DNA of 32,000 bases from assembly GCA_964640155.1 (NCBI GenBank), contig CAZXEQ010000005.1:60001-92000 (forward strand). Reading direction: 5' to 3'. Below are positions 230 to 28,999 of the stretch, piece by piece. This DNA comes from an uncultured bacterium. Its GTDB lineage: Bacteria > Auribacterota > JACPWU01. The notes under the pieces are model-generated. The model was not told the origin of the DNA and did not search any database. It was given only the letters and a program-made list of their open reading frames with translations. A program made the position numbers and the translations under genes. Position 1 is the stretch's first letter, and each line of letters begins with the position of its first letter.

Positions 230-1549
230 CTAACGGGTTAAAATTGCTTTATATTCCTTTTCCACATCCTTCACGTATTGATCCGTCGTACGTACTCTTA
301 GTTGAGAATGTTCGTATATTTTCGATAGCATTTTTGGATTTTTCAATATTTCCTCTAATAATAAACTCAAGGCTTGTACATCTCCTGGAGTAAAAGAATA
401 TCCTTGCACGTTCTCAGCAACCAATTCTGTCATTCCTTCCAAGCGACTGATTAAGACAGGAGTTCCTGCAGATAAAGCTGAACATAAGACAAGTGGCGCA
501 CTTTCATACCATATCGATGGAATAATCAAAGCATGAATATTTATTAAAGTTTTTCCCATATTTTCATGAGGGAAAATTCCTTTAAAAATAACACTTTGCC
601 CCAAAGACTTTGCCTTTTCTTGAAGCATTTTACAAAAAGAATTCTCTTTAAGTTCACCGTAAATCTCAAACTGAACTTTCTTCCCGTTCTCTCCTAGTCG
701 TGACAATGCTTCCAAAATAAGATGAGGGCCTTTCACTTCTGAAAGCGTTCCTATGAAACCTAATTTTAAAGGAATTGTTTCACTAAAAGAATCTGGGATA
801 GAGATAGGTTCAGGTAAAAAACCCACATCCACGCCTGTTTCCACAACTTTCACAAGATTTTTAAGAACCCCATGGCGAATCAAAATGTCAGACAAGAACT
901 TTGTTTCTGTTAGCACCCGATTGGAAGCATTAACGCAATTCACCATAAAACCCAGTCGATGGCTTAAAGAATAAAGAGACTGTAAACGTCTGGAAATATA
1001 TCTTAAAGGGGTATTAGCAATCTTTAACAACCATCGAGCTATCCCATAAGAAACAGGTCGATAACATCGCACACAATTTGTCCCATCTCCAGGCCCTTCA
1101 CAAACCTTTTTTTCATACGTTCTAAATAATGTAATTTTTGGACAAACAGTCCAATAGTCGGTTGGGGTAAAAACCACAGGAATTCCCATCCCTTTGATTT
1201 CTGGAATGATCTTTGCAGAAAATCCCATGATATGATTCAAGTGAACCAGATCAGGACGAACGCTTAAGAGTAATTTTTTGACAAGTTGAATACGGTGAGA
1301 CATTTCCAAGTGAGGAGCAATAATATTTTCATTACCTATTAATCCAAAATGAAGTCGATGAACTTGAAAATCATCATAGATATCTTTGGACAGCCAGGGC
1401 TCTTTCCCTCCCGTGTTTTCCTCTTCACAAGTAAGGATTTGAACTGAATGTCCTAATTTTCTTAAACCCCTGGCTAATTCTAAAGAAAGAACCTCTGTTC
1501 CTGCACGACTCTTTGGGAAAAATTGATGAACTCCAATTAAAATTTTCAT
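230..1549 (-). CDS. Glycosyltransferase, GT4 family (GT-B fold)
   Basis: 439-aa ORF with ATG at 1549. N-terminal MKILIGVHQFFPKSRAGTEV and C-terminal SAGTPVLISRLEGMTELVAENVQGY are typical GT4 donor-binding motifs. Sits in a polysaccharide cluster. Confidence 0.8.
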   Translation of the reverse strand: MKILIGVHQFFPKSRAGTEVLSLELARGLRKLGHSVQILTCEEENTGGKEPWLSKDIYDDFQVHRLHFGLIGNENIIAPHLEMSHRIQLVKKLLLSVRPDLVHLNHIMGFSAKIIPEIKGMGIPVVFTPTDYWTVCPKITLFRTYEKKVCEGPGDGTNCVRCYRPVSYGIARWLLKIANTPLRYISRRLQSLYSLSHRLGFMVNCVNASNRVLTETKFLSDILIRHGVLKNLVKVVETGVDVGFLPEPISIPDSFSETIPLKLGFIGTLSEVKGPHLILEALSRLGENGKKVQFEIYGELKENSFCKMLQEKAKSLGQSVIFKGIFPHENMGKTLINIHALIIPSIWYESAPLVLCSALSAGTPVLISRLEGMTELVAENVQGYSFTPGDVQALSLLLEEILKNPKMLSKIYEHSQLRVRTTDQYVKDVEKEYKAILTR

Positions 1550-1562
1550 TTTTAATTACTTT

Positions 1563-2486
1563 TTAAAAGTTAAAACGTGATTTTATTTTTTTGACGTATC
1601 TTTTCATTTTTAATAAAACTTTTGAATGAAATCGGCATGCCCATTGATCCATAACATCTTGCGCATATAGATTTGCCTCTGACCAATATTCACGAGAAAT
1701 GAGTTCTTGAAAAAGCAAGCGCTGAATCTGAATGAGACGCTGATCCGCTAAATTCTGAATGGAACGATAAAAATCAGGATAATCCTGCAATATATCCAAA
1801 CTACTTTTTAACAATGCTTTATAAAGCTCTTGTTTGTTTTTTGATTTGGATCCTGCATGCCATCGAATCCAGGCACTAGAAGTCGGACAATAAACAGCTT
1901 GGCATTCCAAAGCAACGCGCTGTAGAAAATCAGAATCCTCATTCCATTTAAGATTTTCTCTGAATCTTCTATCCTTGACAATCTGTGCTCTATAGAGAAT
2001 CGCCGAAGATTTTGCTTCGCATGTTAAAAAATGTTGAATAGCAAATTGATCAGGACATCCAGCAGCTGCAACCTTTTGCATTTGCTCACGCTGGGTTTCT
2101 TCGTCAAAAAGAATATGATCGGCATAAGTAAATCCAGCCTTGGGATTCTTGTCCAAAAGATTAATCTCTCGAAATAATTTCCCAGGCAAAAACCGATCGT
2201 CCGAATCTAAAAAGCAAACATAGCCTACTGTATGTGCTTGTTCCAATCCTATATTCCTTGCACTGGCACATCCTCCATTTTCTTTTTTTAAATAGAAAAT
2301 TTCCTGGGGGTGTTCATTTACAAACTTTCTACAAACTTGGTCTGTATGATCTGTCGATCCATCATCGACAATCATTATTTTTTTATGGGGATAATCTTGG
2401 GTCAAAACACTTTGAATCGCCTCAGGCAATAGTTTTTGCCGGTTGTAAGTTGGGATAATGATTAAAACTGTTTTTGAATCAATCAT
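1563..2486 (-). CDS. Glycosyltransferase, GT2 family
   Basis: The tracked ORF runs to 2618, but its first 44 codons read through a GC-rich repeat element. The GT2 signature begins right after Met45 (MIDSKTVLIIIPTYNRQKLL...DDGSTD...DSDD), so I place the start at ATG 2486. A -10-like TATTAA lies 7 nt upstream. Confidence 0.8.
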   Translation of the reverse strand: MIDSKTVLIIIPTYNRQKLLPEAIQSVLTQDYPHKKIMIVDDGSTDHTDQVCRKFVNEHPQEIFYLKKENGGCASARNIGLEQAHTVGYVCFLDSDDRFLPGKLFREINLLDKNPKAGFTYADHILFDEETQREQMQKVAAAGCPDQFAIQHFLTCEAKSSAILYRAQIVKDRRFRENLKWNEDSDFLQRVALECQAVYCPTSSAWIRWHAGSKSKNKQELYKALLKSSLDILQDYPDFYRSIQNLADQRLIQIQRLLFQELISREYWSEANLYAQDVMDQWACRFHSKVLLKMKRYVKKIKSRFNF

Positions 2487-2523
2487 AAGTTTTTTAATAA
2501 ATGAGATATTTATTTGAAAAAAT

Positions 2524-2627
2524 AGCGGGTCCTGCCACTCGTCAGCCCCACCGTGCTCACTAAAAGTTGCGCGCGGCGGGGCTCCCCGCCGAGTGTCACC
2601 CGCGCTTATGAAGAACACATTTAATAA
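2524..2627. repeat. Mosaic copy of a structured intergenic repeat family, with an extra GC-rich hairpin
   Basis: It shares the blocks CTCGT(T)CA, ACC[A/G]TGCTCACT (2550-2561 vs 6170-6181) and CACATT(C)TAATAA (2616-2627 vs 6199-6211) with the 6085-6211 element, in the same orientation. It carries a perfect hairpin CGGCGGGG-CT-CCCCGCCG at 2574-2591. Confidence 0.5.
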
Positions 2628-3442
2628 TATGATTTTTTATTTAGAAAAACAGGTTTACGAATAATGGCCAAGTAATTAACTCTCAAAAAAGGTAAATATG
2701 ATAATAACATGGCCAAACCATAAGATTTTTCAGCCACTCGAGATAGTTTAAAGTCTAAAGATAAACTCTGACACAACATTTCTCCCTTTGAGAAAAGACT
2801 TTGAATTTCAGAAATTTCAAAAGGTTTTATAGGAGTTGGATGTTGAACAGATTCTGATGAAATTTGGATTTTTTTCTTAACTCCCTTTAAAGCACGTAAA
2901 AAAACAATCGTGTAACCATAAATTTTGAGTAAGGCCCTTACAGCAAAAGGAGTTGGTCGAACATCATAAAAAAGAATAGTCCCTCCAGGACGCAAGACAC
3001 GCCACATTTCTTGCGCAAGTTGCTCGCGCATTTGGAAATTTAAAATAGAACTCATGCAAGTAAATTGCATCACCAAATCAAATTGCTCATTCAAAAGAGG
3101 AAGATGAGCCCCATCTGCTTGTAGAAACTGAATGCTCGTATATCTTTCTTTTCCATACCTAAGTCGGTTCTCCATTAAATCTACACCGACAGCTTCTTTG
3201 GCTCCAAATTCCAGAAATCTTTGTAAAATATGTCCATTGCCACATCCTACTTCTAAAACTTTGGATTTTGATAAATCTATTTTTACTTTCTTCAAAGATT
3301 TTAGAATGGCTCTTTCCCTTTCTTGCATATGAAAAAGAAAAGCTGGATTTGTATATGTATATGGGTTAGATAAATTCAAAGCGTCGCGTCTGGTATATTC
3401 ATTGCGAAGGCGATGGGTCTCTTCATTAAATGAAAGGTTCAT
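2621..3442 (-). CDS. Class I SAM-dependent methyltransferase
   Basis: Motif I VLEVGCGNGHIL and post-motif LRPGGTILFYD. ATGA start/stop overlap with the upstream GT4 (3439-3442). Confidence 0.75.
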   Translation of the reverse strand: MNLSFNEETHRLRNEYTRRDALNLSNPYTYTNPAFLFHMQERERAILKSLKKVKIDLSKSKVLEVGCGNGHILQRFLEFGAKEAVGVDLMENRLRYGKERYTSIQFLQADGAHLPLLNEQFDLVMQFTCMSSILNFQMREQLAQEMWRVLRPGGTILFYDVRPTPFAVRALLKIYGYTIVFLRALKGVKKKIQISSESVQHPTPIKPFEISEIQSLFSKGEMLCQSLSLDFKLSRVAEKSYGLAMLLSYLPFLRVNYLAIIRKPVFLNKKSYY

Positions 3443-4581
3443 GAATTTATTAACTCCTGATAAATTTCTGCCAAACGCTCCCCTTGCTTTCTGGCATTAT
3501 ATTCTTCTTCAATATGTCGCCTTGCAGCATTTAAAATTTTTGGCCACTCATCCAAATGCTCCTCCCACCAAACTAGATTAGAAGCAATCCCTTCAACATC
3601 ATGCTCGTTCGATAATAATCCTGTCTGACCATGCTCAATCGCTTCAGGAATATCGCAGTGACGTGTACTCACCACTGGCATTCCACTGGCCATCATTTGA
3701 AGAAGAACCACGGGAAGTCCCCCTTCAGTATCCTGATCAGAAGCTGTCACACTAGGAGCAAGAAAAATGTGATGGCGATACGCCTCTTCAAACAAACGAT
3801 GACGAGGTTGATAACTTAACAATCGAACTTTTTCAGAAAGGCCATTGTCATCAATCGCTTTAAGAATTTTCTTTTTTTCATTCTGACTTCTTTCCTCCTC
3901 ATTGGCATCCCCGATCAGCGTAATTTCTAATACAATCTTTTGCTGAACTTTTCCTAAAGCCTTTAAAGCATCAGGAATCCCCTTTTTCTCCTGAAATGAA
4001 GAAGCTATCAATACCCTCAAAGGCTCCTCTTTATTCCATATTCTTGGCTTAAACGAGATTTCATCTAAATCGACTCCTAGATGGTAAATTCGAATCTTCT
4101 CTTTTGAACAACCTAATTTCATCAGGCTTTCTGACATATGCTTTCCTTCGCATAAAACACGATCTGCTCTTTCAAAAAGTTCATGATAACGCTCTTTCCA
4201 ACACGTTTCTAAAGCAGGAAGATAATTCACATCAAAGCCATAAAAAGAAACGATATGCTTCAAACTTGTATTTTTTAAAATTTTACTATCTTGCCACCCC
4301 ACATTTCCAAAATGAGAATGCAAGCAATCTCCCCTATATTTTTGAATGGTTTTTAGAAAAAAAGAGGAATAATTCTGTCGCCCCCATTTTTTTAAAAAGC
4401 TTGGAACCCAATCCCGTGTATTGCTAGACACATGTATTTTAGATAAAGCAAATTGATCCAAATTCTCAGTTTTCTCACAAATAACATGACACTCAATGGA
4501 TGAGGGAAGAAATCGGACCTGATCATACATCCAATTTTGAGTTAAAGGCAACCATGTCGGAAAACTATGGAAAACAATCAT
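3439..4581 (-). CDS. Glycosyltransferase, GT4 family (WcaL-like)
   Basis: 380-aa ORF. C-terminal block FLAPSVTASDQDTEGGLPVVLLQMMASGMPVVSTRHCDIPEAIEHGQTGLL is a typical GT4 nucleotide-sugar binding region. Confidence 0.8.
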   Translation of the reverse strand: MIVFHSFPTWLPLTQNWMYDQVRFLPSSIECHVICEKTENLDQFALSKIHVSSNTRDWVPSFLKKWGRQNYSSFFLKTIQKYRGDCLHSHFGNVGWQDSKILKNTSLKHIVSFYGFDVNYLPALETCWKERYHELFERADRVLCEGKHMSESLMKLGCSKEKIRIYHLGVDLDEISFKPRIWNKEEPLRVLIASSFQEKKGIPDALKALGKVQQKIVLEITLIGDANEEERSQNEKKKILKAIDDNGLSEKVRLLSYQPRHRLFEEAYRHHIFLAPSVTASDQDTEGGLPVVLLQMMASGMPVVSTRHCDIPEAIEHGQTGLLSNEHDVEGIASNLVWWEEHLDEWPKILNAARRHIEEEYNARKQGERLAEIYQELINS

Positions 4582-4591
4582 CTTTAGATCA

Positions 4592-6043
4592 TTACCTTCC
4601 TTGAGATTTTTTAAAATGTATAAGTTTTATAATTTCTTGCCATCCCTTACGATCCATTCTATAACTTGCAAAGACATAAACCAAACTTCCACCTAAAACA
4701 AGAATGATCAGAATCCAAAGAGAAGAGAGAGTTGAAGGTAATATCATCCTTATTAAAAATATTGCACCCATCATCAAAAGGCTGTTGAGAAAAGGGAAAG
4801 CAAGTTCCTTAAGCAAGTCAAGAAAACTTAAATGAATCAATTTAAATGGAATGAGAAAACTCGGAATCGCTAACAAAAAAGAAACTGTAGTATAAGCTGT
4901 GGCTACACCTAGCACACCCCAATTCAAGCCTAATATAAATGCAAAAATCGTGACAATCCCTGCAAACAGTCCCCAACGAAATAACCAGTCTGTACGTCCC
5001 TTCGCTTGATAAATAATACCTACCGTTGTTCCAATCGATTGTATTAAACCTACAGGAGCAAGAATCATCAACAACCCTATCATCGGAGTCCAACGAGGCC
5101 CAAATACAGCCAAAACTAAAGGGCGAGCTAATACCATCAAAGCAATCATAGCGGGAAAAGTAATCATGGCAATTGTATGCGCAATTTTTAAATAAACTCT
5201 TCGAAAACGTTCGAGATCATCTTGAATTTCAGAATAGAGGGGTAAAAGAACACGCCCTACTACAGAATAAACTGATTGTATGGGATAGAACATGATGCGA
5301 TATGCCAAAGCATAATACCCCAAAGCCTCTGCTCCCAAAAATCGTCCAATCAAAAAATTATCCATATTCCTTGCTAAATAACTGAACAAGTTAAAGCCTG
5401 TAAGATTTAGACTAAAATCTCTAATCATACTCATATGTTGACGAGCAAAAATCCAGCGTGGTTTCCAAGAGCTAAAAAGCCATAATAAACTGGTCATCAT
5501 AATTGTGCTCACCAAAGTCTGATAAACCAAACTCCAAACACTATACCCCTTTAACGCAAATCCAATCGCTACGATAGCTCCCGCCAGGGTTGAAACAATT
5601 TCGAAAAGGGCCAATCGATTAAAGGCTAATTTTTTTTCAAATAAAGATTGGTGAACAACCCCTAATCCTGAGAAAAAAAATGTAAGGCAGAGCACTCTAA
5701 GAATAGGAACCACACGAGGCTCATGATAAAAAAGACCTATACAGAAAGAAAGACTCCAAATAATCAACATTGCTAAAAAACCAATTCCAGCATTTAACCA
5801 AAAAATACTGGATAAAGTTTCTTCAGAAATATCTTTTTTTTGAATCACTGCTGCAGAAGTCCCTAAATCTTTAAACAAAGTCACAAAACCTGTAATAACA
5901 ATAGCCATCCCCACCAAACCAAAATCGCTTGGAGAAAGCAATCGAACTAAAACAAGCGTCGTTCCCCATTGAACGATTTGACGTCCAAATTGAGAAACGG
6001 AAGTCCACTTAATGCCTGAAACAGTACGACTTGAGAGAGTCAT
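4592..6043 (-). CDS. MOP-superfamily polysaccharide/O-unit flippase (Wzx-like)
   Basis: 483-aa, highly hydrophobic multi-span protein. N-terminus GIKWTSVSQFGRQIVQWGTTLVLVRLLSPSDFGLVGMA is typical of PST/Wzx-type polysaccharide biosynthesis proteins. Confidence 0.75.
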   Translation of the reverse strand: MTLSSRTVSGIKWTSVSQFGRQIVQWGTTLVLVRLLSPSDFGLVGMAIVITGFVTLFKDLGTSAAVIQKKDISEETLSSIFWLNAGIGFLAMLIIWSLSFCIGLFYHEPRVVPILRVLCLTFFFSGLGVVHQSLFEKKLAFNRLALFEIVSTLAGAIVAIGFALKGYSVWSLVYQTLVSTIMMTSLLWLFSSWKPRWIFARQHMSMIRDFSLNLTGFNLFSYLARNMDNFLIGRFLGAEALGYYALAYRIMFYPIQSVYSVVGRVLLPLYSEIQDDLERFRRVYLKIAHTIAMITFPAMIALMVLARPLVLAVFGPRWTPMIGLLMILAPVGLIQSIGTTVGIIYQAKGRTDWLFRWGLFAGIVTIFAFILGLNWGVLGVATAYTTVSFLLAIPSFLIPFKLIHLSFLDLLKELAFPFLNSLLMMGAIFLIRMILPSTLSSLWILIILVLGGSLVYVFASYRMDRKGWQEIIKLIHFKKSQGR

Positions 6044-6084
6044 ATAAAAGCTTTCTTATCTTTATAAAAAGGCTACAGCTATCA

Positions 6085-6211
6085 TTATTAGAATGTTCGA
6101 ATACGTTGGTTTGTCCCTGCGAGCCAAACCAACTCAAAGGAGCTCTCGTTCATCCCGATAAATCGGGATACCATGCTCACTCGAGCTCCAATGGTTCTCA
6201 CATTCTAATAA
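6085..6211. repeat. Structured palindromic intergenic element (full-length copy, 127 bp)
   Basis: Perfect 12-bp terminal inverted repeat TTATTAGAATGT/ACATTCTAATAA. Internal hairpins are GTTGGTTTG/CAAACCAAC (6105-6113/6125-6133), GGAGCTC/GAGCTCC (6139-6145/6183-6189) and ATCCCGA-TAAA-TCGGGAT (6152-6169). Confidence 0.7.
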
Positions 6212-6227
6212 CGATTTATTTCATAAA

Positions 6228-6887
6228 TTATTTTTTTCTGACAATAATCATATACATCCAAGTCCACTCTTCAGAATGATCCAATTTATTCAAAACAAAA
6301 GAGATGAGTTGAATTATTACCCCTATAAAAGGAATAATACCCAACCAACGCAAAGGACCTTTGTTAAAACGATACAGGTAATAAACAAAAAGCTGTCCGA
6401 ATGTCACCCAAAAACCAGACAGAGCTTTTATTTCAATCACTTCAAACCCTGTTTTTTCAAAAAGATATTTCAACCCATGTTTTGTAAATCTAAAAAAATC
6501 CCTGGGTTCTTCGTGAGGATGCCAAATGAAAGGAACACTATAAATAGCTACTCCACCTGGTTTCAATACTCTATGACATTCTCTCAACGCTTGCTCAGGT
6601 TCTTCTAAATGTTCTAAAACAGACGTGCATAAAGCCGAATCAAAACTCACATTTTCACAAGGAATTTGATAAGCCGTTCCAAACAAATCAACTTGAGATG
6701 AATCATGCAGGGTCTCATGATGATCCACACCTACATGCTCAGAAACATAACCAGAAAGGAGGCTTTGATAAGGTTTCGTCGCACAACCAATATCAATAAG
6801 ACGTCCCCGAAAATATTTTGAGGCGTAAATCTTTAACGCTTGATCATGAATATGATTTACCAAACGATTCATCAGCTCACGTGCCAT
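6228..6887 (-). CDS. SAM-dependent methyltransferase with C-terminal membrane segment
   Basis: Motif I LIDIGCATKPY, then VLEHLEEPEQAL and LKPGGVAIYSVPF. Hydrophobic tail. Its ATG overlaps the upstream stop (TAATG at 6885-6889). Confidence 0.7.
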   Translation of the reverse strand: MARELMNRLVNHIHDQALKIYASKYFRGRLIDIGCATKPYQSLLSGYVSEHVGVDHHETLHDSSQVDLFGTAYQIPCENVSFDSALCTSVLEHLEEPEQALRECHRVLKPGGVAIYSVPFIWHPHEEPRDFFRFTKHGLKYLFEKTGFEVIEIKALSGFWVTFGQLFVYYLYRFNKGPLRWLGIIPFIGVIIQLISFVLNKLDHSEEWTWMYMIIVRKK

Positions 6888-7561
6888 TAGTCAGATTCCT
6901 TTGGAAAAGAAGCATATGAAACATGGTTGTTATAGATTTTTCTAGCATCCAAAATAACTTTGTTCCAATTTGATCCTAAAACCAAATGTTCCAAATATTT
7001 TACAAATGTTTTTGCTGCTCTTTTAGCAATCATCTTATCTAAAGCCTCAGGATCACAAATCCCCTCTATTGCTATTTCTTCTTGAAAAATAATTTCTCCA
7101 GTATCAATTTTCTCTGTTACCTGATGAAAACTATAACCTGTTTTATTTTCATTATTTTGAATACACCAATAAGAAGGTACAGGCCCTCGGTAAAAAGGCA
7201 GTATAGAAGGATGAATATTAATTAGACTTTTAAACCTCTCAATGGTTTTACAATCAAATATTTGATTAAATCCTGCAATCACCCCAAAATCATCTAAATT
7301 TATTTTTTTACGAAAAAACCAAGAATTAACATTTCTTGCCAACAAAAAGTCTAACCCTGTTTCATTTTCGAATGTTTTTTTCCTATTCTTATTTCTTCTC
7401 CACTCTTTAACATAAGACTGTATTCTTCTAAAAAAATTTTTCGATTGACTCACAGGATCAGAATAAACAACTATGATTTTTATCTTATGAGCCTTGTGAA
7501 AATCATGTGCGGCTTTTAAAAAAGCCTCTCCGTACCCTTCATTGCAAAAAAGATAAATCAT
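6887..7561 (-). CDS. Formyltransferase-family protein (likely sugar N-formyltransferase)
   Basis: INIHPSILPFYRGPVPSYWCI...KTGYSFHQVTEKIDTGEIIF matches the formyl_trans_N catalytic core (Asn-x-His, SLLP-x-x-RG, DTG Asp). ATGA overlap with the upstream gene at 7558-7561. Confidence 0.65.
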   Translation of the reverse strand: MIYLFCNEGYGEAFLKAAHDFHKAHKIKIIVVYSDPVSQSKNFFRRIQSYVKEWRRNKNRKKTFENETGLDFLLARNVNSWFFRKKINLDDFGVIAGFNQIFDCKTIERFKSLINIHPSILPFYRGPVPSYWCIQNNENKTGYSFHQVTEKIDTGEIIFQEEIAIEGICDPEALDKMIAKRAAKTFVKYLEHLVLGSNWNKVILDARKIYNNHVSYASFPKESD

Positions 7562-8553
7562 CTTTTGAATACCTTTCTTGCTAGAGCAGCATACTTTTTG
7601 AGTATCCCAGTCTTCTCTATTATTTCATGATCTATAAAAGGACAAGGTCGAACTTCAGTTCCAAAACTTTTTTTAAAGGCTTTCACCCCCGTATGAGATC
7701 CACTGGGATTAAAGTCAAACCAGAAATACTTTTTTTCACATGCCTCTTTTATGGCCTCATACATCAAAAGATGAACCGGACGCAAATGAAAATAATTTTT
7801 TAAAGCGGCTCCATGCCAGTAAACCACATGATGTTTTGCATAGAAACATAATGCCCCAGCCACAACCCTTTCCTCGCACTTAGCAAGCCACAATTTGATA
7901 TAAGGCGAATTTTTTCGAAGCATTTCTTCAAATAATTCAAAACGGTATTGGGATGAAGCTCTATCTCCCCACCTTTTTAAAGAATCTTCGTACACATGAA
8001 AATAATCCTTCCACTCATTTGAGGTAGAGGCAATATGAACACTGACTCCCAACTTTTTTGCCTGATGAACATCTGCACGATGCCCCTTTGTCCATTTTGA
8101 GAAAACAGCATCAAAGCCTTCCTGAAGATCAATGACTTGAGTTATATCGTCTTGAAAAGAAGAAAGTGAAAGCTCCACTAAAGATCCCTCATAGGGATTA
8201 AGCCTTAGAAAAATAGTCTGAAATTGATTTAAAAGAGAATGAATCAATAAATTTCTATGCTGAATTGAAAGAGGTTCTACTGACAGCCAACCTCCAAAAG
8301 TATCTGCAGGAGAGGAAATATACTTTTGGGGTATTGAACCATCCCCGTCCCTTACGGAAAAAGGGAGTAAAACTTCTTTCCCATCAGAAAAAAGAACCAT
8401 CTGAGCGTTTGGCTGCATGTTCCCATTCGTATAAAATTTCCAAATTTGGGCCCATTCTCTTGAATGAAAAAAAGTTGAGTACTCGCAAGCCTTCCAAATC
8501 GAATCCCATTTCTCATCACTGGCCGATTGTATGCGAGTAATGGATAAATTCAT
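7558..8553 (-). CDS. FemAB-like / GNAT-fold acyl- or aminoacyl-transferase
   Basis: C-terminal VVYWHGAALKNYFHLRPVHLLMYEAIKEACEKKYFWFDFNPSG resembles the FemAB/Acetyltransf_6 family. I chose Met11 (ATG 8553) as the start because it forms an ATGA overlap with the DegT stop at 8550-8552. The tracked start is 8583. Confidence 0.55.
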   Translation of the reverse strand: MNLSITRIQSASDEKWDSIWKACEYSTFFHSREWAQIWKFYTNGNMQPNAQMVLFSDGKEVLLPFSVRDGDGSIPQKYISSPADTFGGWLSVEPLSIQHRNLLIHSLLNQFQTIFLRLNPYEGSLVELSLSSFQDDITQVIDLQEGFDAVFSKWTKGHRADVHQAKKLGVSVHIASTSNEWKDYFHVYEDSLKRWGDRASSQYRFELFEEMLRKNSPYIKLWLAKCEERVVAGALCFYAKHHVVYWHGAALKNYFHLRPVHLLMYEAIKEACEKKYFWFDFNPSGSHTGVKAFKKSFGTEVRPCPFIDHEIIEKTGILKKYAALARKVFKR

Positions 8554-9725
8554 TTTTGGGTTATCACCTGTTTTATAGCGCAAATCACATCTTCAACATC
8601 TTTATCTGAAAGTTTGGCAGAAATAGGTAAACTCATGGTCTGTCTTCCAATACGCATCGCATTTGGAAAATCTTCCGGCCGCCAACCAAATGTTTTTTGA
8701 TAATAAGGATGTTCAGGAATACTCAAGTAATGCACCCCTACCCCAATATGATGCGCTGTCATCGCATCTAGAAAACGATCCCGACTGATTCTAGTCTTTT
8801 CTTCATCAATCAAAATTGTATATAAATGATATGCATGACGCGTGCCCATTTCAGGAGAAGCTGGTAATCGAAGAGGTAACAAAGCAAACGCCTCGTTGTA
8901 GCGTGTCCAAACAGCTTGTCGACGCTGCCAATAATTTTCTATTTTTTTAAGTTGATGAATGCCTACGGCCGCTTGTAAATCCATCATGTTGTACTTAAAT
9001 CCACATTCCATCACATAATAATGCTTATAACCTTCATCTCCAAATCGTTTCCACGCATCTTTATCCATCCCATGAAGCGCTAACATTTTAATTCTTGCAG
9101 CATCCTCTTCACGCTTTGTCAAAACCATTCCACCTTCCCCTGTCACAATATTTTTTGTGACATAAAAACTAAAACAACCAAAATCTCCAAAGGTTCCTAC
9201 TTTACGTCCTTTATATTCTGATTCAATCGCGTGTGCACAATCTTCAATCACTTTTAAATGATGCTTGGAGGCAATGGCCATGATGGCATTCATATCACAT
9301 GGGCGACCTGCAAAATGAACAGGAAGAATAGCTCGCGTCTTGGAAGTGATTCGTCTTTCTATATCCTTCGGATCAATATTAAAAGTCATCGGATTTACAT
9401 CTGTAAGAACAGGGGTCACACCTGCATGAATGATGGCATTGACCGTAGAACAAAAGGTAAGAGCCGTTGTAATGACTTCATCGCCAGGTTTTAAATCACA
9501 CGCCAATAAACTTAAATGCAAAGCTGCCGTACAAGAATTAACTGCAACAGCATGTTCAGCTTTTTTATATGCTCTAAAGTCACTTTCAAATTGGGAAACT
9601 TTAGGACCTGTCCCCAACCAACCGCTTCTCATGCTTGCAACAACTTCCTGAATTTCAGCCTCTTCAATGATAGGGGCCCCAAATACAAGAAATTGATCTT
9701 TAGAACGTATAGGAGAAGAATTCAT
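8550..9725 (-). CDS. DegT/DnrJ/EryC1/StrS-family PLP-dependent sugar aminotransferase
   Basis: 391 aa. Motifs FLVFGAPIIEEAEI, NSCTAALHLSL, and FSFYVTKNIVTGEGGMV with the PLP-lysine. First gene of the cassette. Confidence 0.9.
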   Translation of the reverse strand: MNSSPIRSKDQFLVFGAPIIEEAEIQEVVASMRSGWLGTGPKVSQFESDFRAYKKAEHAVAVNSCTAALHLSLLACDLKPGDEVITTALTFCSTVNAIIHAGVTPVLTDVNPMTFNIDPKDIERRITSKTRAILPVHFAGRPCDMNAIMAIASKHHLKVIEDCAHAIESEYKGRKVGTFGDFGCFSFYVTKNIVTGEGGMVLTKREEDAARIKMLALHGMDKDAWKRFGDEGYKHYYVMECGFKYNMMDLQAAVGIHQLKKIENYWQRRQAVWTRYNEAFALLPLRLPASPEMGTRHAYHLYTILIDEEKTRISRDRFLDAMTAHHIGVGVHYLSIPEHPYYQKTFGWRPEDFPNAMRIGRQTMSLPISAKLSDKDVEDVICAIKQVITQK

Positions 9726-9741: not shown

Positions 9742-9797
9742 TTTTATAGAACGTTCTGGGGATGAAAGAGTTTTACATACTGCAAATGAATTCATAA

Positions 9798-9874
9798 TTG
9801 TTCATTAGAAAGTTCCTTTGAGTTCGTTTCCCTCGCTGGGGGAAACGAACGCGTCTGAACATTCTGATGAACAA
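9798..9874. repeat. Structured palindromic intergenic element (short copy, 77 bp, opposite orientation)
   Basis: Termini TTGTTCATTAGAA/TTCTGATGAACAA (12/13 complementary). Hairpin GTTCGTTTCC/GGAAACGAAC (9822-9831/9841-9850). Aligns to the reverse complement of 6085-6211 through TCCTTTGAGTT...GAACATTCT[A/G]AT. Confidence 0.7.
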
Positions 9875-9991
9875 TAAGAAATACAATAAGATTAATTAAT
9901 TATTTCTTCGTTTTTGCTAAAAAAGTTTTATACTACTGATAAATAGCTTCTTAATCAGTCATCATTAAATGTTTTTATTACATAAACTTCC

Positions 9992-11230
9992 ATGCCAAGA
10001 CTGTTTTTGTTTATTCTTGTATTATTCACACATCTGGGCCATTTTTCTTTTTCGGATGTTCAATCCAAACTTCCATGGGATCATTTAAAAAAATATAATG
10101 ATGCGCTCACACTTAAAGACTTTAAAGAACTCGCAAAAGTTTATTCTCCTGATGGAAGCCTTTATGCTTATATTGAGATAACGCCTCATTACATTGACAT
10201 TTATTCAGAACCTACAAAAACCAAACCTGCCCTTTTTCGTTTACTTCTTGCTCAAAACCAGAATTCAAAGAAAAAAAATTTACCTTTTTTTAAAAATTTT
10301 AAAGAACAGGCTACATCTCAAAAGCCTCTTCAGGGATTACGAATCTTGATTGATCCCGGCCATATTGGAGGCTCTTACGCAAAAATGGAACAGAGAGTTT
10401 TGCGTCGAGAGGATGGAGCTACTATTCAAGAAGGAGACCTCAATCTTAAAACAGCGTTTCTACTTCAAAAACAACTTACCTACTATGGAGCTAAAGTTTA
10501 TCTCACAAAAAACAAGCTGGCTCCTATTACACAAAAAAAACCCCAAGATTTTCTAAAACAAGCTAAAACAAAAACCAACAAAGAAACCATAGAAAACAAC
10601 AGCATCTCCCAAGAAATTCTTGTTGAGAAAAATATGAATCGTCTTTTTTATCGAGAGAGTGAAATTAGAGCAAGGGCTGAAATGGCTCGAAGAATTAAAC
10701 CTGATTTAACCCTTTGCATTCATTACAATGCTACTCCTGCATCCCTTGAGAACCCATGGACAATTGATAATCGCTTGGTTATTTTTGTGCATGGGAGCTA
10801 CGAACCCAACGAACTCGGCAGTGAAGAACAATTATTTAGACTTTTTTCAAAACTTTTAGAAAATTCATCTCCTACCGAAATTGCAATTGCAGAAAAAATA
10901 GCGACTTCTATGCAAAAAACCACAGGACTCCCTGCCGTGGAATATATTCCTAGCTCCCAATACATTAAAGTTGGCAAAAATCCTTGTCTTTATGCACGTA
11001 ATCTTGCAGCTAACCGACTTTATCCGGGCCCTGTGATTTATCTGGAACCCTATTATCAAAACAACCAGCTGGTATTTGATCGATTGATTGCGGGAGATTA
11101 TAAAGGGATTAGAAAAATTCAGGGACAAGATTATAGAAGTATTTTCAGGGATTATGCAGATGGAGTGACAAAAGGAATTTTAGAATTCTTTAATACCTTA
11201 CGAACATCGAAGCATCGACAAAAAAATTAA
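9992..11230 (+). CDS. N-acetylmuramoyl-L-alanine amidase (Amidase_3 family), secreted
   Basis: N-terminal signal-like MPRLFLFILVLFTHLG. Amidase_3 zinc/catalytic blocks ILIDPGHIGG, EGDLNLKTAFLLQKQLTYYGAKVYLTK, LCIHYNA and VIYLEPYYQNN. Confidence 0.7.
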   Translation: MPRLFLFILVLFTHLGHFSFSDVQSKLPWDHLKKYNDALTLKDFKELAKVYSPDGSLYAYIEITPHYIDIYSEPTKTKPALFRLLLAQNQNSKKKNLPFFKNFKEQATSQKPLQGLRILIDPGHIGGSYAKMEQRVLRREDGATIQEGDLNLKTAFLLQKQLTYYGAKVYLTKNKLAPITQKKPQDFLKQAKTKTNKETIENNSISQEILVEKNMNRLFYRESEIRARAEMARRIKPDLTLCIHYNATPASLENPWTIDNRLVIFVHGSYEPNELGSEEQLFRLFSKLLENSSPTEIAIAEKIATSMQKTTGLPAVEYIPSSQYIKVGKNPCLYARNLAANRLYPGPVIYLEPYYQNNQLVFDRLIAGDYKGIRKIQGQDYRSIFRDYADGVTKGILEFFNTLRTSKHRQKN

Positions 11231-13044: not shown

Positions 13045-13076
13045 AATTAGTCTCCTTTATACTGCTTCGAGTACTA

Positions 13077-13124
13077 CAGGGCCGATCGAAAGTCCTTCGG
13101 ACTATCAAATAAATAGCGGCCCTG
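13077..13124 (-). other. GC-rich nested stem-loop immediately after the rsmA stop
   Basis: CAGGGCCG (13077-13084) pairs with CGGCCCTG (13117-13124). It encloses the hairpin AGTCC-TTC-GGACT (13091-13103). No U-tract follows on the transcribed (minus) strand. Confidence 0.55.
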
Positions 13125-19435: not shown

Positions 19436-20932
19436 ATGAACAGTTTAAAAACATCAAAACCTTTTCAAGCTTATCTGATGAGCATTACTTTGGTTGCTTT
19501 AACCACCTTTTTGGGCGAATGGGTTAAGGAAAAACTTGAGCCAACCAATCTCGTTATGCTCTATCTTTTGATGGTCGTGATAGTCGCTACTCTTTGGGGA
19601 CGGGGGCCTGCGATTTTAACTTCCATTTTAAGTGTTCTTGCTTTTGATTTTTTCCTTATTCCTCCTTATTTGACCTTCGTTGTTCATGATATACAATATG
19701 TTTTTACTTTTGCAGGACTTTTAATTGTAGCCTTGGTTATAGGAACATTAACATCTCGAATCAGAGAACAGGCAATACAGGCAAAAGAACAAGAGGCCCA
19801 AACATCTGCGTTATATCGATTAAGTAAAGATTTAGCGGCAGCAGAATCTTTCGAAAAAGCTTTGCAAGCTATTCGAGAAAATGTAGGGAAAATGCTTAAT
19901 GGTCTTATGTGCATTTATTTTCCTGTCCATCATGTTTTAGAACCTGTCAGCTATGATCCGGATTTCCCAATCAATGAACATGAAAAAACAATTGCAACCT
20001 GGGTCTTTGAAAATGGGAAAGCCGCTGGACCCAGTGCAGATACTTTAGTAGCCGCACAAGCCCATTATCGTCCTCTTCAAACATCTCAAAAGACATTAGG
20101 TGTTTTAGGAATACGCCTCAAAGAAGACAGATCCCAGATGACTTTAGAAGAGCAAAATTTATTGAGTGCTCTCGGTAGTCAGGCTGCTATTGCAATCCAA
20201 CGCTCCAAATTTGCCGAGGAAACACGTCAGATAGCGGTCATGAAACAAACTGAAAAACTTCAGACAGCATTATTAAATTCCATTTCTCATGATTTAAGAA
20301 CTCCTCTTGTCTCCATTACAGGGACCTTAAGCAGTCTTTTGCAAGACACAAGTTTGCTTAAAGATCAAAACAGAAAAGAACTTTTGGAAGATGCCTATGA
20401 AGAATCTACCCATTTGAATCGTTTGGTAGGTAATCTTTTGGATATGACAAGAGTAGAATCTGGTACGTTAAAAATTCAGTTAAAACCTTGTGAATTAAGA
20501 GACGTACTCGGATCTGCGTTACAATCATTAAGAGAAAAATTAGAAAAAAGAGAGATTCAAATTTATATTCCTAATGATTTCCCAGAGATCCCAGTCGATT
20601 TTTCTTTAATGATGCGAGTGTTTATCAATCTCATTGATAATGCTGTCAAATATTCTCAAGCAGATTCGCTCATTAAAATAACAGCAAAAATCCTTCAAAA
20701 CAAAGTTGTGATTGAAGTTAGCGATGAGGGTTTTGGCATTCCCAAAGAAGATCTCGAGCGTATTTTTGATAAATTTTACAGAGCTGTCAAAACCAAATCA
20801 GTCATAGGGACAGGCCTTGGACTTTCTATTTGTAAGGGGATTATAGAAGCCCATGGTGGAAAAATTTGGGCTCAAAATAATTTAAATAAGGGAGCGACTT
20901 TCTGTGTTGAACTCCCAATTTTAATAGGATAA
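19436..20932 (+). CDS. kdpD: KdpD-type sensor histidine kinase lacking the N-terminal KdpD/Usp sensor (4-TM DUF4118-like + GAF + HisKA + HATPase_c)
   Basis: 498 aa. TM core NLVMLYLL...FDFFLIPPYLTF is characteristic of KdpD. H-box LLNSISHDLRTPL with His285 (CAT 20288-20290). N, G1 and G2 boxes NLIDNAVKYS, DEGFGIP and GTGLGLSICKGI. Directly followed by kdpE. Confidence 0.85.
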   Translation: MNSLKTSKPFQAYLMSITLVALTTFLGEWVKEKLEPTNLVMLYLLMVVIVATLWGRGPAILTSILSVLAFDFFLIPPYLTFVVHDIQYVFTFAGLLIVALVIGTLTSRIREQAIQAKEQEAQTSALYRLSKDLAAAESFEKALQAIRENVGKMLNGLMCIYFPVHHVLEPVSYDPDFPINEHEKTIATWVFENGKAAGPSADTLVAAQAHYRPLQTSQKTLGVLGIRLKEDRSQMTLEEQNLLSALGSQAAIAIQRSKFAEETRQIAVMKQTEKLQTALLNSISHDLRTPLVSITGTLSSLLQDTSLLKDQNRKELLEDAYEESTHLNRLVGNLLDMTRVESGTLKIQLKPCELRDVLGSALQSLREKLEKREIQIYIPNDFPEIPVDFSLMMRVFINLIDNAVKYSQADSLIKITAKILQNKVVIEVSDEGFGIPKEDLERIFDKFYRAVKTKSVIGTGLGLSICKGIIEAHGGKIWAQNNLNKGATFCVELPILIG

Positions 20933-20935
20933 CTC

Positions 20936-21634
20936 ATGGAACACTCCCCTTTGAGAATTCTTGTCGTCGACGATGAAAAGAGTATTCGACGTTTTTTAAA
21001 AACAACACTGACTTCTCATGGGTATAGAGTATTCGAAGCCTCAGATGGGAAAGAAGCTTTGGAAAACTCTGTTTCCTCACATCCCGATGCAATTGTCTTG
21101 GATCTAGGTCTTCCTGACATGGATGGAATAGATGTCACACGTGAGATTAGAAAAAGAACGAAAATTCCCATTATTATTCTATCTGTACGAGAAGACGAGA
21201 CTGACAAGATTGCGGCCCTAGATGCAGGGGCAGATGATTATTTAACAAAACCCTTCAATGCGGGAGAAATGCTTGCACGTTTAAGGGCTGTGATGAGACG
21301 ATTGATGCCACAAGACGAAGGAACGGTTTTTAAAGTCGGAAAACTTTCAATGGATATTGCAAAACATAGTCTCGAACTTAAGGGGGATCCGATACGTCTT
21401 ACGCCAACAGAATATAATATTCTAAAAGTTCTTGTGATGAATGCGGGAAGAGTCGTTACCCATCAAAGTATTTTGAAGGAAGTGTGGGATAAGTCTGAGG
21501 ATTTAGAAGGAGTTTCGCATCTTTTAAGAGTGACCATTAGTAATCTTCGTAACAAAATCGAACCTAATCCCAATCAACCCACTTACATTTTGACTGAACC
21601 AGGGATTGGATACCGCCTGTCCGTAGACGATTAA
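20936..21634 (+). CDS. kdpE: OmpR-family response regulator KdpE
   Basis: Receiver motifs ILVVDDE, DLGLPDMDG and KPF. Winged-helix C-terminus LTPTEYNILKVL...GIGYRL. Position is 3 nt after the KdpD-type kinase and upstream of kdpFABC. Confidence 0.85.
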   Translation: MEHSPLRILVVDDEKSIRRFLKTTLTSHGYRVFEASDGKEALENSVSSHPDAIVLDLGLPDMDGIDVTREIRKRTKIPIIILSVREDETDKIAALDAGADDYLTKPFNAGEMLARLRAVMRRLMPQDEGTVFKVGKLSMDIAKHSLELKGDPIRLTPTEYNILKVLVMNAGRVVTHQSILKEVWDKSEDLEGVSHLLRVTISNLRNKIEPNPNQPTYILTEPGIGYRLSVDD

Positions 21635-26057: not shown

Positions 26058-26154
26058 CATTCATTAGTGTGAATAGATTTATGTAGGCCAGTACTATGAG
26101 AAACAAAGCATGAATAATCATTCATTAGAAAAATCCTTTGTTTCTCATTAGTAT
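26058..26154. repeat. Repeat-related hairpin insertion in the kdpB-kdpC spacer
   Basis: 13-bp perfect stem ATGAGAAACAAAG/CTTTGTTTCTCAT (26096-26108/26136-26148). The 20-mer at 26121-26140 matches 9801-9820 at 18/20. CATTCATTAG is duplicated (26058-26067 and 26119-26128). Confidence 0.45.
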
Positions 26155-26812: not shown

Positions 26813-28999
26813 GTGGATAAAAAAAGACCGGATCCGGATCAAATTCTAAAAACAGTTCAAGCGGAAGAATCTAGGCGAGGAAAGCTCAAGATTTTTTTCG
26901 GAGCTGTCGCAGGTGTAGGAAAAACCTATGCCATGCTTGAAGCTGCCAAACATCGAAAAAAAGAAGGTATTGATGTCATCGTTGGTTATGTTGAAGCACA
27001 TAAACGTGCTGAAACAGAAGCGCTTCTAGAAGGTTTTGAAGTTCTGTCCCTTAAAATTATTCCTTATAAAAATATTGAATTACGTGAATTTGACATCGAC
27101 GCAGCTTTAAAGCGTCGCCCCTCTCTTATCTTGGTAGATGAACTCGCTCATACCAACGCTGAAGGATCTCGACATCTTAAGCGCTGGCAGGATGTGGAAG
27201 AACTGTTAAATGAGGGAATTGACGTTTACACAACTCTCAATGTGCAACATTGTGAGAGTGTCAATGATGTCATTGCTCAAGTTACCAATGTTGTTGTTAG
27301 AGAAACCGTCCCTGATACTTTTATTGAGCAGGCTCATGAAATTGAGCTTGTGGATTTACCTTCTGAAGAACTTCTCAAACGCTTAAAAGAGGGGAAAGTT
27401 TATCTTAGCTCTCAGGCAGACCATGCTGCAGAGCATTTCTTCCAACCCGGAAATCTCATTGCTTTACGGCAATTGGCTCTTCGGTATACAGCCAAAAATG
27501 TAGATGCAAAAATGCGTGCTTATAGACAGATGCATTCCATCTCTAAAGTCTGGAATGTAGGAGAACGCTTTCTACTGGGTGTGAGTTCAGGACCCTCGGC
27601 AATAAAACTTATTCGTACGGCAAAGCGCATTGCTTCTGAAATTGGCGCAGCCTGGACAGTCGCTTATGTGGAAACCCCTTCTTTTCGAAGTTCAAGTGAA
27701 AATATTGCCAGAGTTTCAGACATGCTCAGATTCGCTGAAAAGTTAGGAGCTGAAACAGTTAGTTTAAATGGTCCGGATATCGGCGAAGAGCTTATTTCTT
27801 ATGCCAGATCAAAAAACATTACAAAACTGATTGTGGGGAAACCACAACGGACGAGATTTCAAGAAATTATTTCAGGATCTGTTGTAAATCAACTGGCTCG
27901 CAAAAGTGGTGAAATTGATCTTTATATTATTAGTGGAGAAAAAGCAGACATTTCCGAAAAAATCAAAAGAGATTCACTCTTGAAATTTTCGTGGAAAGGA
28001 ATGGGTTTTGCTATTCTTGCAGTGTTTTTATGTACAGGAGTCAATCACCTCCTCTTTTCTTATTTGTCTCTTGCGAATCTCGTGATGATTTATCTCTTAG
28101 GCGTAGTTTGGATTGCTTTTAACTATGGAAGACGTGTTTCTATCATTGTTTCTTTTTTGAGCGTACTTTGCTTTGACTATTTTTTTGTTCCTCCTTATTT
28201 AACTTTTTCTGTTTCAGATACTCAGTATCTAGTGACATTTACAGTGATGTTAACCATTGGGCTTTTGATCAGCGAGTTGACAGAAAGACTACGTCGACAA
28301 ACAGTTGCCATGAGACTCCGTGAAGAGCGTACCTCGGCTTTATATGCGTTGACGCGAGATCTCTCTAAAACATCTAATCCGGATGAACTTTATCAATTGG
28401 GAGTTCAACATATCTCAGATTTTTTCAAGTGCCCCGTTGTGGCCTTGGTACGTGATGTTAAAAAAGGGCTTATTGTTAGAGCTGGGAATATTGAAAGTCA
28501 TATTCTAGATTCTAGTGAAAGAGCCGTAGTTGAATGGTGTTATGAACAGAAAAAAATAGCGGGGAAAGGAACGGATACTCTACCTGGATCTTTAGGGCTT
28601 TATCTTCCTCTCTTAGGAGCTGAAAGAGTTGTCGGCGTTTTGGGAATATTCCCAAAAGACGAAAAACAATTTTTGAGTCCTGAAGCCTTCCACATGTTTG
28701 AAATGTTTGCAAATCAAACTGCACTGGCTATTGAAGGAACCGAACTTTCTGCTGCAGCCATTCAGTCACAGTCTCAATTTGAAAATGAGAGATTAAGAAG
28801 TCTTCTCTTAACGACATTCTCTTATGATTTGCCAGAACAATTTTTAGATATTTCAAAAGCCGCCGATGAGCTTTTAAGGCTCAAGACATCTGATGATATA
28901 TCAAAGCACAGAGATTTAATTCAGAAAATCAAAGATGAAGCAGAGCGCTTAACCAATCTTGCTAAAGAGCTTCCTGGAATTATTGATTCAAAAAGTTAA
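26813..28999 (+). CDS. kdpD: KdpD sensor paralogue without kinase: KdpD N-terminal domain + Usp + 4-TM + GAF + degenerate DHp (His replaced by Tyr), no HATPase_c
   Basis: GTG start. RPDPDQIL and Walker-A-like FGAVAGVGKTYAML match the KdpD N-terminus. A Usp-like region follows. TM core NLVMIYLL...FDYFFVPPYLTF is paralogous to the kinase at 19436. The H-box position reads LLTTFSYDLPEQ (Tyr671, TAT 28823-28825). The protein ends 57 aa later with no ATP-binding boxes. Confidence 0.85.
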   Translation: MDKKRPDPDQILKTVQAEESRRGKLKIFFGAVAGVGKTYAMLEAAKHRKKEGIDVIVGYVEAHKRAETEALLEGFEVLSLKIIPYKNIELREFDIDAALKRRPSLILVDELAHTNAEGSRHLKRWQDVEELLNEGIDVYTTLNVQHCESVNDVIAQVTNVVVRETVPDTFIEQAHEIELVDLPSEELLKRLKEGKVYLSSQADHAAEHFFQPGNLIALRQLALRYTAKNVDAKMRAYRQMHSISKVWNVGERFLLGVSSGPSAIKLIRTAKRIASEIGAAWTVAYVETPSFRSSSENIARVSDMLRFAEKLGAETVSLNGPDIGEELISYARSKNITKLIVGKPQRTRFQEIISGSVVNQLARKSGEIDLYIISGEKADISEKIKRDSLLKFSWKGMGFAILAVFLCTGVNHLLFSYLSLANLVMIYLLGVVWIAFNYGRRVSIIVSFLSVLCFDYFFVPPYLTFSVSDTQYLVTFTVMLTIGLLISELTERLRRQTVAMRLREERTSALYALTRDLSKTSNPDELYQLGVQHISDFFKCPVVALVRDVKKGLIVRAGNIESHILDSSERAVVEWCYEQKKIAGKGTDTLPGSLGLYLPLLGAERVVGVLGIFPKDEKQFLSPEAFHMFEMFANQTALAIEGTELSAAAIQSQSQFENERLRSLLLTTFSYDLPEQFLDISKAADELLRLKTSDDISKHRDLIQKIKDEAERLTNLAKELPGIIDSKS

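Follow-up and report, generated by a model that had tools for sequence, protein, structure and literature searches.

Two short palindromic elements, A and B, lie between genes in a 32,000-nt stretch of DNA (the window) from an uncultured bacterium of the Candidatus Auribacterota lineage. On balance, they probably belong to a previously undescribed, lineage-specific family of non-coding palindromic DNA repeats. These repeats are 77-135 bp long, are bounded by terminal inverted repeats (TIRs), and resemble both miniature inverted-repeat transposable elements (MITEs) and REPINs, the inverted doublets of repetitive extragenic palindromes (REPs). The original prediction, made from the window alone, had allowed either a REP/MITE-like DNA element or a small structured RNA. 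The first of these fits the presence of B in one genome and its absence from a close relative, as well as the inversion in place of the elements that the two genomes share.

Among public genomes, the closest is 'MAG: Candidatus Auribacterota bacterium SZ_szas25bin.51' (MAG, metagenome-assembled genome; contig JAYRIK010000215.1), here called the sister genome. Its Mfd protein is 94% identical to that of the window, nucleotide identity is approximately 87-89%, and synteny runs from window position 19306 to about position 1. The next-best relatives reach 47% identity for Mfd and 57% for the flippase, so that the sister genome is the sole informative relative. Logan contigs of the window's own strain (SRR8893623, SRR31893870) extend the sequence by about 5 kb to the left and 9 kb to the right. 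The lineage DNA compared is therefore about 46 kb of the window's strain plus a 23.5-kb sister contig (about 70 kb). Sister-genome coordinates are labelled L086; the polysaccharide region L086:6313-15820 corresponds to window 230-9725.

Element A has the full set of modules, in the order T-H1-M2-T'. Element B has the order T-H1-T' and lacks M2.

6085-6211 (127 nt), element A, between the stop of a methyltransferase gene (6228-6887, minus strand) and the start of a MOP flippase gene (4592-6043, minus strand)
6085-6096, T, left terminal inverted repeat of A, TTATTAGAATGT, pairing with 6200-6211
6105-6133, hairpin H1 of A, GTTGGTTTG-loop-CAAACCAAC, inside a 50-nt run (6103-6152) identical in the sister genome
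6133-6141, linker CTCAAAGGA, invariant across A, the A ortholog and B
6139-6189, nested module M2, with outer stem GGAGCTC/GAGCTCC, inner hairpin ATCCCGAT-AA-ATCGGGAT and then ACCATGCTCACT
6200-6211, T', right terminal inverted repeat of A, ACATTCTAATAA
9787-9885, element B, a near-complete palindrome (core 9798-9874, 77 nt; H1 at 9822-9850), in the divergent spacer between a DegT aminotransferase gene (8550-9725, minus strand) and an amidase gene (9992-11230, plus strand)

The predicted extent of A and its perfect 12-bp TIR are confirmed by reading the sequence; with one mismatch the repeat extends to 16 bp, and in the A ortholog it is 15 bp and perfect. The nested module predicted at 6139-6189 is indeed a hairpin inside a hairpin. 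It forms part of about 58 nt (6142-6199) that are found in A and missing from B. The generic family terminus T contains ..TTCATTAGAATGT... B lies where it had been placed, at 9798-9874 with termini TTGTTCATTAGAA and TTCTGATGAACAA; its terminal repeat is imperfect and about 18-20 bp long, and the palindrome reaches outward to 9787-9885. A repeat search describes B as two 46-nt arms, 76% complementary, around a 7-nt loop, forming one long imperfect hairpin. Both elements fold far better than shuffled sequences. The RNA fold of A has -52.1 kcal/mol on the minus strand (z = -6.8) and -43.5 kcal/mol on the plus strand (z = -6.4); that of B has -43.8 kcal/mol (z = -7.5), and its other strand has z = -6.1. 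The open reading frame (ORF) spanning A has no match in Pfam. Its 82-aa product retrieved three matches among 1.84 billion representative proteins, all of them very long proteins and none a real homolog.

The homology of A and B in opposite orientation, as originally proposed, is firmly supported. The repeat search pairs 6087-6147 with 9808-9868 over 61 nt, without gaps and with 77% complementarity. In nhmmer searches over 1.4 Mb of fetched DNA, A matches B with E = 3e-5 and B matches the A ortholog with E = 1.5e-7. Smith-Waterman comparison against shuffles gives z = 17-22 for the A-B similarity, with none of 500 shuffles scoring as high. A covariance model of the shared core, run over 445 kb, matches only A, the A ortholog and B. 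Both elements are GC-richer hairpins in AT-rich spacers, and this is the resemblance that unrelated hairpins, such as terminators, could share by chance. The search statistics and the selectivity of the covariance model refute such a coincidence, there is no T-run after A or B, and B lies between divergent genes; the probability left to chance is negligible. A role of A and B as sigma-70 promoters or Rho-independent terminators was considered and rejected, as no such sites or T-run were found in them and B separates divergent gene starts.

Two further palindromic elements, C and D, share modules with A and B.

2511-2626, element C, a GC-rich palindromic repeat of a second type, between a methyltransferase gene (2621-3442, minus strand) and a gene for a family 2 glycosyltransferase (GT2; 1563-2486, minus strand)
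2523-2603, core of C, GCGGGT to ACCCGC, 70% GC, with the M2-like motif ACCGTGCTCACT and the A-like terminus CACATTTAATAA
26070-26154, element D, an AT-rich palindrome inserted in the kdpB-kdpC spacer (230 nt); its positions 26114-26140 match the left terminus of B plus CCTTTG

These elements had been described as a third, mosaic copy (2524-2627) and a related fragment (26058-26154), and each description holds in part. Within the window, C and A share only ACC[A/G]TGCTCACT and a terminus-like CACATT..TAATAA, a weak similarity (z = 1.4). In the sister genome, M2 of the A ortholog and the left half of the C ortholog share CCCCGATG..CATCGGGGT..GTGCTCACT, at z = 10 with none of 500 shuffles as high, and here the sharing of a module is clear. 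D matches the left end of B only at 26114-26140 (ATAAT..TTCATTAGAAA..TCCTTTG, 23 of 27 nt, z = 7.8), and its remainder does not match. Within the family, TTCATTAGAAANNTCCTTTG is exact in B and D at all 18 of its 18 specified bases, where 0.01 chance matches are expected. The family is thus modular and mosaic as predicted, with M2 common to A and C and a terminus of B in D. Judged from these sequence comparisons, C and D are better treated as repeat types in their own right, with some modules in common with A and B, than as copies of the same element.

GC content is 44% in A and B, 70% in the C core and 28% in D, and the surrounding spacers have 21-27%. The description of the elements as GC-rich islands therefore suits A, B and the C core and fails for D. 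GC-richer sequence in AT-rich spacers implies maintenance, or recent arrival, against an AT mutational bias. The further statement that the elements always sit at gene or operon junctions merely restates their intergenic location. B lies in the divergent spacer at the head of a polysaccharide biosynthesis cluster, A and C lie between co-directional genes within this cluster, and D lies in the kdpB-kdpC spacer.

Comparison with the sister genome reveals both loss or gain and inversion. B is missing there: the amidase-DegT spacer has 116 nt, as against 266 nt in the window, and the AT-rich DNA around the locus is too diverged to define a clean empty site. Beside B, at 9752-9797, the window has extra DNA relative to the sister genome that includes TTCATCCCCAGAACGTTC, which is like the family terminus TTCATTAGAATGTTC plus an insertion; from its sequence, TTCATCCCCAGAACGTTC may be a remnant of a second terminus. 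The ortholog of A (L086:9826-9960) occupies the same position to the nucleotide and its TIRs align; with respect to the flanking genes, its interior is the reverse complement. The window plus strand of A matches the L086 plus strand although the genes lie on opposite strands. The C ortholog (L086:13425-13545) is likewise inverted in place relative to its genes, so that the two elements common to both genomes are each inverted. Two independent assemblies of the window's strain have A in the same orientation, and the opposite orientation occurs only in the sister genome. Look-ups of the flanking proteins for contigs in the opposite orientation returned only the same Logan contig, and the GT2 protein had no record.

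The sequence of A is strongly conserved despite this inversion. A and its ortholog are identical at 117 of 127 positions (92%), including the exact 50-nt run at 6103-6152, in which lie H1 (loop included), the linker and half of M2. Identity between window and sister genome is 71% at the four-fold degenerate sites of eight neighbouring genes, 58-64% at those of the two genes on either side of A, and about 78% (76-79%) in other spacers. The binomial probability of the conservation of A is 5e-9 against the eight-gene four-fold sites, 2e-16 against those of the flanking genes and 2e-5 against other spacers. C is identical to its ortholog at 90 of 107 positions and is indistinguishable from other spacers. 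Adjacent genes of the polysaccharide cluster (window 230-9725 versus L086:6313-15820) differ in their identity at four-fold sites, which lies between 0.58 (flippase) and 0.89 (FemAB-like); this spread suggests a recombination mosaic within the locus.

The opposite orientations in the two genomes recall invertons, in which a recombinase would flip A and C and so alter the expression of downstream polysaccharide genes, for example by showing or hiding a one-directional terminator or some other signal that depends on orientation. The cluster occupies about 230-9725 on the minus strand, in the order DegT, FemAB-like, formyltransferase, methyltransferase, A, MOP flippase, GT4 (family 4 glycosyltransferase), methyltransferase, C, GT2 and GT4, and polysaccharide clusters are a classic location of invertons. 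Both A and C are inverted in place, and inverted repeats flank each segment (12-15 bp for A; about 17 bp and imperfect for C in the sister genome). Within A, the interior is considerably better conserved than expected for neutral sequence. C is the only element that is even weakly terminator-like, and in one orientation only: as oriented in the window it ends in a GC-rich stem plus T6 on the gene strand, and this arrangement is lost in the sister orientation. Several observations count on the other side. A scan for the sigma-70 consensus alone found no promoter of this type inside A, B or C, and no recombinase domain was found in the ORFs of the window or the called genes of the fetched flanks. 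A Logan contig passes A unbranched, indicating one orientation in that sample, and the contig ends at C are reasoned not to lie where an in-place flip would put them. B is a near-perfect palindrome with no unique interior and is dispensable. Moreover, loops between short inverted repeats in plastid DNA flip recurrently without an invertase (PMC6342102). Recombinase-driven switching is consequently considered rather unlikely. By-eye candidates for sigma-54 sites and Mpi-type invertase sites were discarded because their spacing or pairing did not fit.

A related idea, which is speculative and given a small chance, treats A and C as promoter-less, invertible hairpin cassettes under sequence constraint, whose orientation would set read-through, decay or translation of the flippase and glycosyltransferase messages. 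If true, this would represent a hairpin- or terminator-type phase switch, built from mobile-repeat modules, in an uncultured phylum related to the Planctomycetes-Verrucomicrobia-Chlamydiae (PVC) superphylum.

The opposite orientations could also have arisen without any inversion, by independent, repeated site-specific insertion into the same intergenic sites in both lineages. Such insertion would jointly explain opposite orientation, identical position and high identity, and exact multi-copy cores are suggested for C and D (see below). It requires nucleotide-exact re-use of two sites by two element types, and no shared target motif or target duplication is recognizable at A, B or C. In addition, the specific M2-bearing architecture is common to A and its ortholog; the paralog B has no M2 and an identity of only 77%. 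Repeated insertion is thus regarded as very improbable.

The original prediction placed much weight on compensatory changes in H1. The two G:C to C:G stem changes between A and B do exist, at alignment columns 32-54 and 37-49. The covariation test compared three sequences only (A, the A ortholog and B) over 43 proposed pairs and is weaker than R-scape-grade analysis. Overall pairing is 92.5%; both partners have changed in five pairs and a single partner in one. Five double changes compare with 2.1 +/- 1.0 in shuffles (5 of 500 as high) and with 0-1 when the partners are slid. They comprise the two swaps in H1, one change in the M2 inner stem, which is T:A in the window and C:G in the ortholog, and two in the terminal stem. 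The last belong to a change that is matched in the two TIRs, which are separated by about 100 nt: B and the A ortholog have TTCATTAG../..CTAATGAA, and A in the window has TTATTAG../..CTAATAA.

A dedicated structured RNA, such as a cis-regulatory leader, an intercistronic element or a small RNA, would account for these changes by selection on the fold in RNA, and its repetition would follow from its function. In keeping with this, the folds are very stable (z between -6 and -7.5), there are five pair-preserving double changes, conservation of A, with its loops and the invariant linker CTCAAAGGA / UCCUUUGAG, exceeds that of four-fold sites and other spacers, and A, C and D lie within strings of co-directional genes. 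The inversion of the A ortholog relative to its operon is a difficulty. The sense transcripts of the two genomes correspond to opposite strands, so that the sense RNA of one is the reverse complement of the other. At a conserved H1 position (columns 40-46) the pair is a U.G wobble in the sense strand of one genome and a C.A mismatch in that of the other. Both strands fold about equally well, and G:C to C:G swaps and the matched TIR change are unlike the usual route through G:U intermediates. B lies between divergent genes and is missing from the sister genome, no promoter- or terminator-like signal flanks A or B, and no element has an Rfam match at E <= 5. A dedicated RNA is accordingly held to be unlikely.

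The claim that structure-preserving covariation implies selection on the fold is not upheld as stated. The matched TIR change, the G:C/C:G double transversions, the equal folding of both strands and the inverted ortholog would be explained equally well or better if the two arms were homogenized as DNA, or if a hairpin in DNA were the selected structure. The covariation is thus no demonstration of RNA function. A general caution follows: 'compensatory' substitutions in a DNA palindrome are no evidence for a function in RNA.

The assembled lineage DNA and, indirectly, the assembly graph give some indication of the number of copies. The approximately 46 kb of the window's strain contain the full copies A and B, the D fragment, element C and another C-like core, which lies at the end of Logan contig L003 (7531-7562) after an asparagine-synthase gene. 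The 23.5-kb sister contig holds A and C only. Logan assemblies use k = 31, keep all 31-mers distinct and leave contigs of less than 150 bp unreported (PMC12424806). Contigs of the strain end at 2552 and restart at 2574, and end at 26099 and restart at 26125. With 30-nt overlaps, these ends imply unreported graph nodes at 2523-2603 (81 nt) and 26070-26154 (85 nt). The 81-nt node consists of TA plus the GCGGGT...ACCCGC core of C, and the 85-nt node is D. The breaks agree to within 0-2 nt with the palindromic core of C and with the second C-like copy. Contig L003 stops 30 nt inside the second C-like core (L003:7533-7562). On the simplest reading, the C cores and D are exact interspersed repeats. 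The kdpB-kdpC spacer that holds D has 230 nt in the window and 12 nt in another MAG. The kdpB relatives considered for comparison with D (86% identity) come from a different organism with 44% GC and were rejected; there is no orthologous comparison for D.

The family appears to be restricted to this lineage, and its description as unrecognized stands. Rfam 15 gave no match at the gathering score, and blastn of A against E. coli genomes and plasmids found none; A is therefore not ERIC, REP, BIME or a related family. Neither 80 loci of other phyla nor 445 kb of loci from the PVC superphylum contained a family match. The strict core pattern TCCTTTGAGTTNGTTTN{15,35}GAACATT has no match in GTDB representative genomes, a pattern that misses even the A ortholog by one base. 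Its single match in a JGI metagenome is a chance occurrence with no hairpin. Five matches of the M2 hairpin motif or the terminal repeat in viral contigs, some of them of high GC content, likewise occur by chance in unrelated sequence, so that viral contigs add no member. A concatenated query of five proteins, aimed at adjoining parts of the genome, returned only distant DUF2779 homologs and not the identical proteins.

The favoured explanation, a family of MITE/REPIN-like DNA repeats, can be set out in six points, of which the first two are observed and the others proposed. (i) Each copy is assembled from modules, namely terminus T, hairpin H1, linker CTCAAAGGA and an optional nested M2, which are shared as a mosaic with C and D. 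(ii) Copies come and go, as shown by the lack of B in the sister genome and by the presence of D in a kdpB-kdpC junction that is normally tight. (iii) They would be spread by a transposase encoded elsewhere, either RAYT/IS200-like or an enzyme that recognizes the TIRs. (iv) Inversion would occur by recombination or strand switching between the inverted arms. (v) The arms would stay complementary through this exchange between them, or because mobilization requires a DNA hairpin that selection preserves; the hairpin could, for example, be the substrate of a single-strand transposase. Either process would yield 'compensatory' substitutions and a TIR change that is matched at the two ends. (vi) A, C and D are probably co-transcribed, because they lie between co-directional genes, and would then form very stable mRNA hairpins (-44 to -59 kcal/mol) with an influence on read-through or decay. 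Any such effect should depend little on orientation because the elements are palindromic. Size (77-135 bp) and the lack of a Pfam match for the ORF of A agree with a non-coding MITE, and the TIRs fall at the short end of the range usual for MITEs (typically 15-30 bp).

Certain observations weigh against this explanation. No direct repeat flanks A, and no target-site duplication is evident at A or B; TAA on both sides of B has little meaning in spacer DNA of about 25% GC. No transposase was found in the lineage DNA examined. Only two full copies, A and B, and one ortholog are present in the 46 kb and 23.5 kb. Because Logan contigs cross A and B unbroken, no exact copy of either of at least 31 nt exists elsewhere in the sample; the 77% identity of A and B fits this absence and suggests that the copies are old. 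The contig ends at C and D can also be read as a variable centre of 21-25 nt or a drop in coverage at a hairpin. Finally, the conservation of A is far above that of neutral sites, and the conserved run covers loops and linkers as well as stems, which points to a sequence-specific constraint beyond that of a selfish hairpin.

Proteobacteria, Firmicutes and Cyanobacteria are well-known hosts of short palindromic repeats. In Auribacterota such repeats have not been described, as far as the accessible portion of the literature naming this phylum suggests. If they prove to be multi-copy, the elements would offer a marker for strain typing and a known cause of assembly breaks, and would place intercistronic mRNA hairpins in surface-polysaccharide and kdp operons. 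Two features go beyond what is ordinary for such repeats: the in-place inversion of both shared elements, and the conservation of A above synonymous sites despite inversion.

Some further observations concern other parts of these genomes. The window has about 38% GC and, besides the polysaccharide cluster, encodes Mfd, SurA, PdxA and KsgA as well as a kdpABC operon with split KdpD-type sensors. Upstream of kdpA (19436-21634) are a histidine kinase with DUF4118-GAF-HisKA-HATPase architecture and a KdpE-like regulator. Downstream of kdpC (26813-28999) a 728-aa protein has KdpD-N, Usp, DUF4118 and GAF domains and no Pfam match to a kinase domain. From this domain content, KdpD function looks to be split over two proteins. 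The sister genome has a cyclic di-AMP (c-di-AMP; ydaO-type) riboswitch at L006:702-882 (minus strand; 63.9 bits, E = 1.5e-12), adjoining a response-regulator gene. The riboswitch sits where the window has the whole kdpFABC-kdpD block, and the window is without an Rfam match there. Its position makes the kdp operon appear as an insertion/deletion difference between the genomes, beside a c-di-AMP-controlled gene. The 80-nt spacer between KsgA and a conserved 82-aa ORF (13045-13124) is identical in the sister genome at 78 of 80 positions, compared with 76-79% in other spacers, and holds a GGGCCG...CGGCCC hairpin; it may be a conserved regulatory or RNA element. In the 5' part of the amidase gene (10042-10075), the nucleotide alignment with the sister genome and one Logan contig both end, as would be expected if the N-terminal region were variable or strains differed here. 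The spacer that separates the RNase Y and 5-formyltetrahydrofolate (5-FTHF) cyclo-ligase genes contains a single isolated hairpin, CATCCCCGA-GTGTCTCTG-TCGGGGATC (L005:11965-12005). It resembles, over a short match only, the inner hairpin of M2 (CCCGAT..ATCGGG).

Among known systems, invertons such as those of Bacteroides polysaccharide loci share with A and C a segment flanked by short inverted repeats, the occurrence of both orientations and a location in a polysaccharide cluster. They differ in that the two orientations here were seen between two genomes and not within one population, there is no internal promoter and the interior is a set of palindromes; nor was a serine or tyrosine invertase found in the window or the fetched flanks. 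Non-coding plastid DNA provides a recombinase-free precedent, in which sequences between inverted repeats of 18-19 bp flip-flop recurrently among close relatives (PMC6342102). The segments described here were similarly inverted between close relatives. Plastid loops, however, measure 5-50 bp as against about 100 bp here, they belong to a different genetic system, and the present elements are repeated and modular.

Bacterial MITEs are sequences of 70-300 bp with TIRs that lie between genes and are often co-transcribed, their robust hairpins stabilizing or destabilizing mRNA (PMC3733652). Effects of this kind have precedents in MITEs of the ERIC, NEMIS and RUP types (PMC3733652). Like MITEs such as ERIC/IRU, Correia/NEMIS, RUP, BOX and EFAR, the elements are small, non-coding and intergenic, with TIRs and hairpins. 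ERIC measures about 127 bp and has variants with internal insertions, and BOX is modular. The present elements depart from these families in several respects: they have no similarity to sequences in E. coli genomes, plasmids or Rfam, their TIRs are only 12-15 bp long, and no target-site duplication or parent insertion sequence (IS) was seen in about 70 kb of lineage DNA. Furthermore, A and C differ in orientation at the same site between sister genomes, and conservation of A exceeds neutral expectation.

REPs are defined as palindromes of 20-40 bp with a conserved GTAG or CGTC tag at one end (PMC3733652). GTAG-tagged REPs are reported in PVC phyla (PMC3733652). Here the tag is not conserved: A has neither motif, GTAG occurs only in the sister-genome copy of C (ATAG in the window), and CGTC occurs only in B, where it is internal, and in C of the window. 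The elements are also longer and more modular than REPs. With REPs and REPINs, which are mobilized by the IS200/IS605-like RAYT transposases, they share an extragenic location, restriction to a lineage, vertical persistence and the lack of target duplications. The closest structural parallel to the REPIN doublet is B, in which two inverted arms of about 35-46 nt, separated by a short loop, form one long hairpin.

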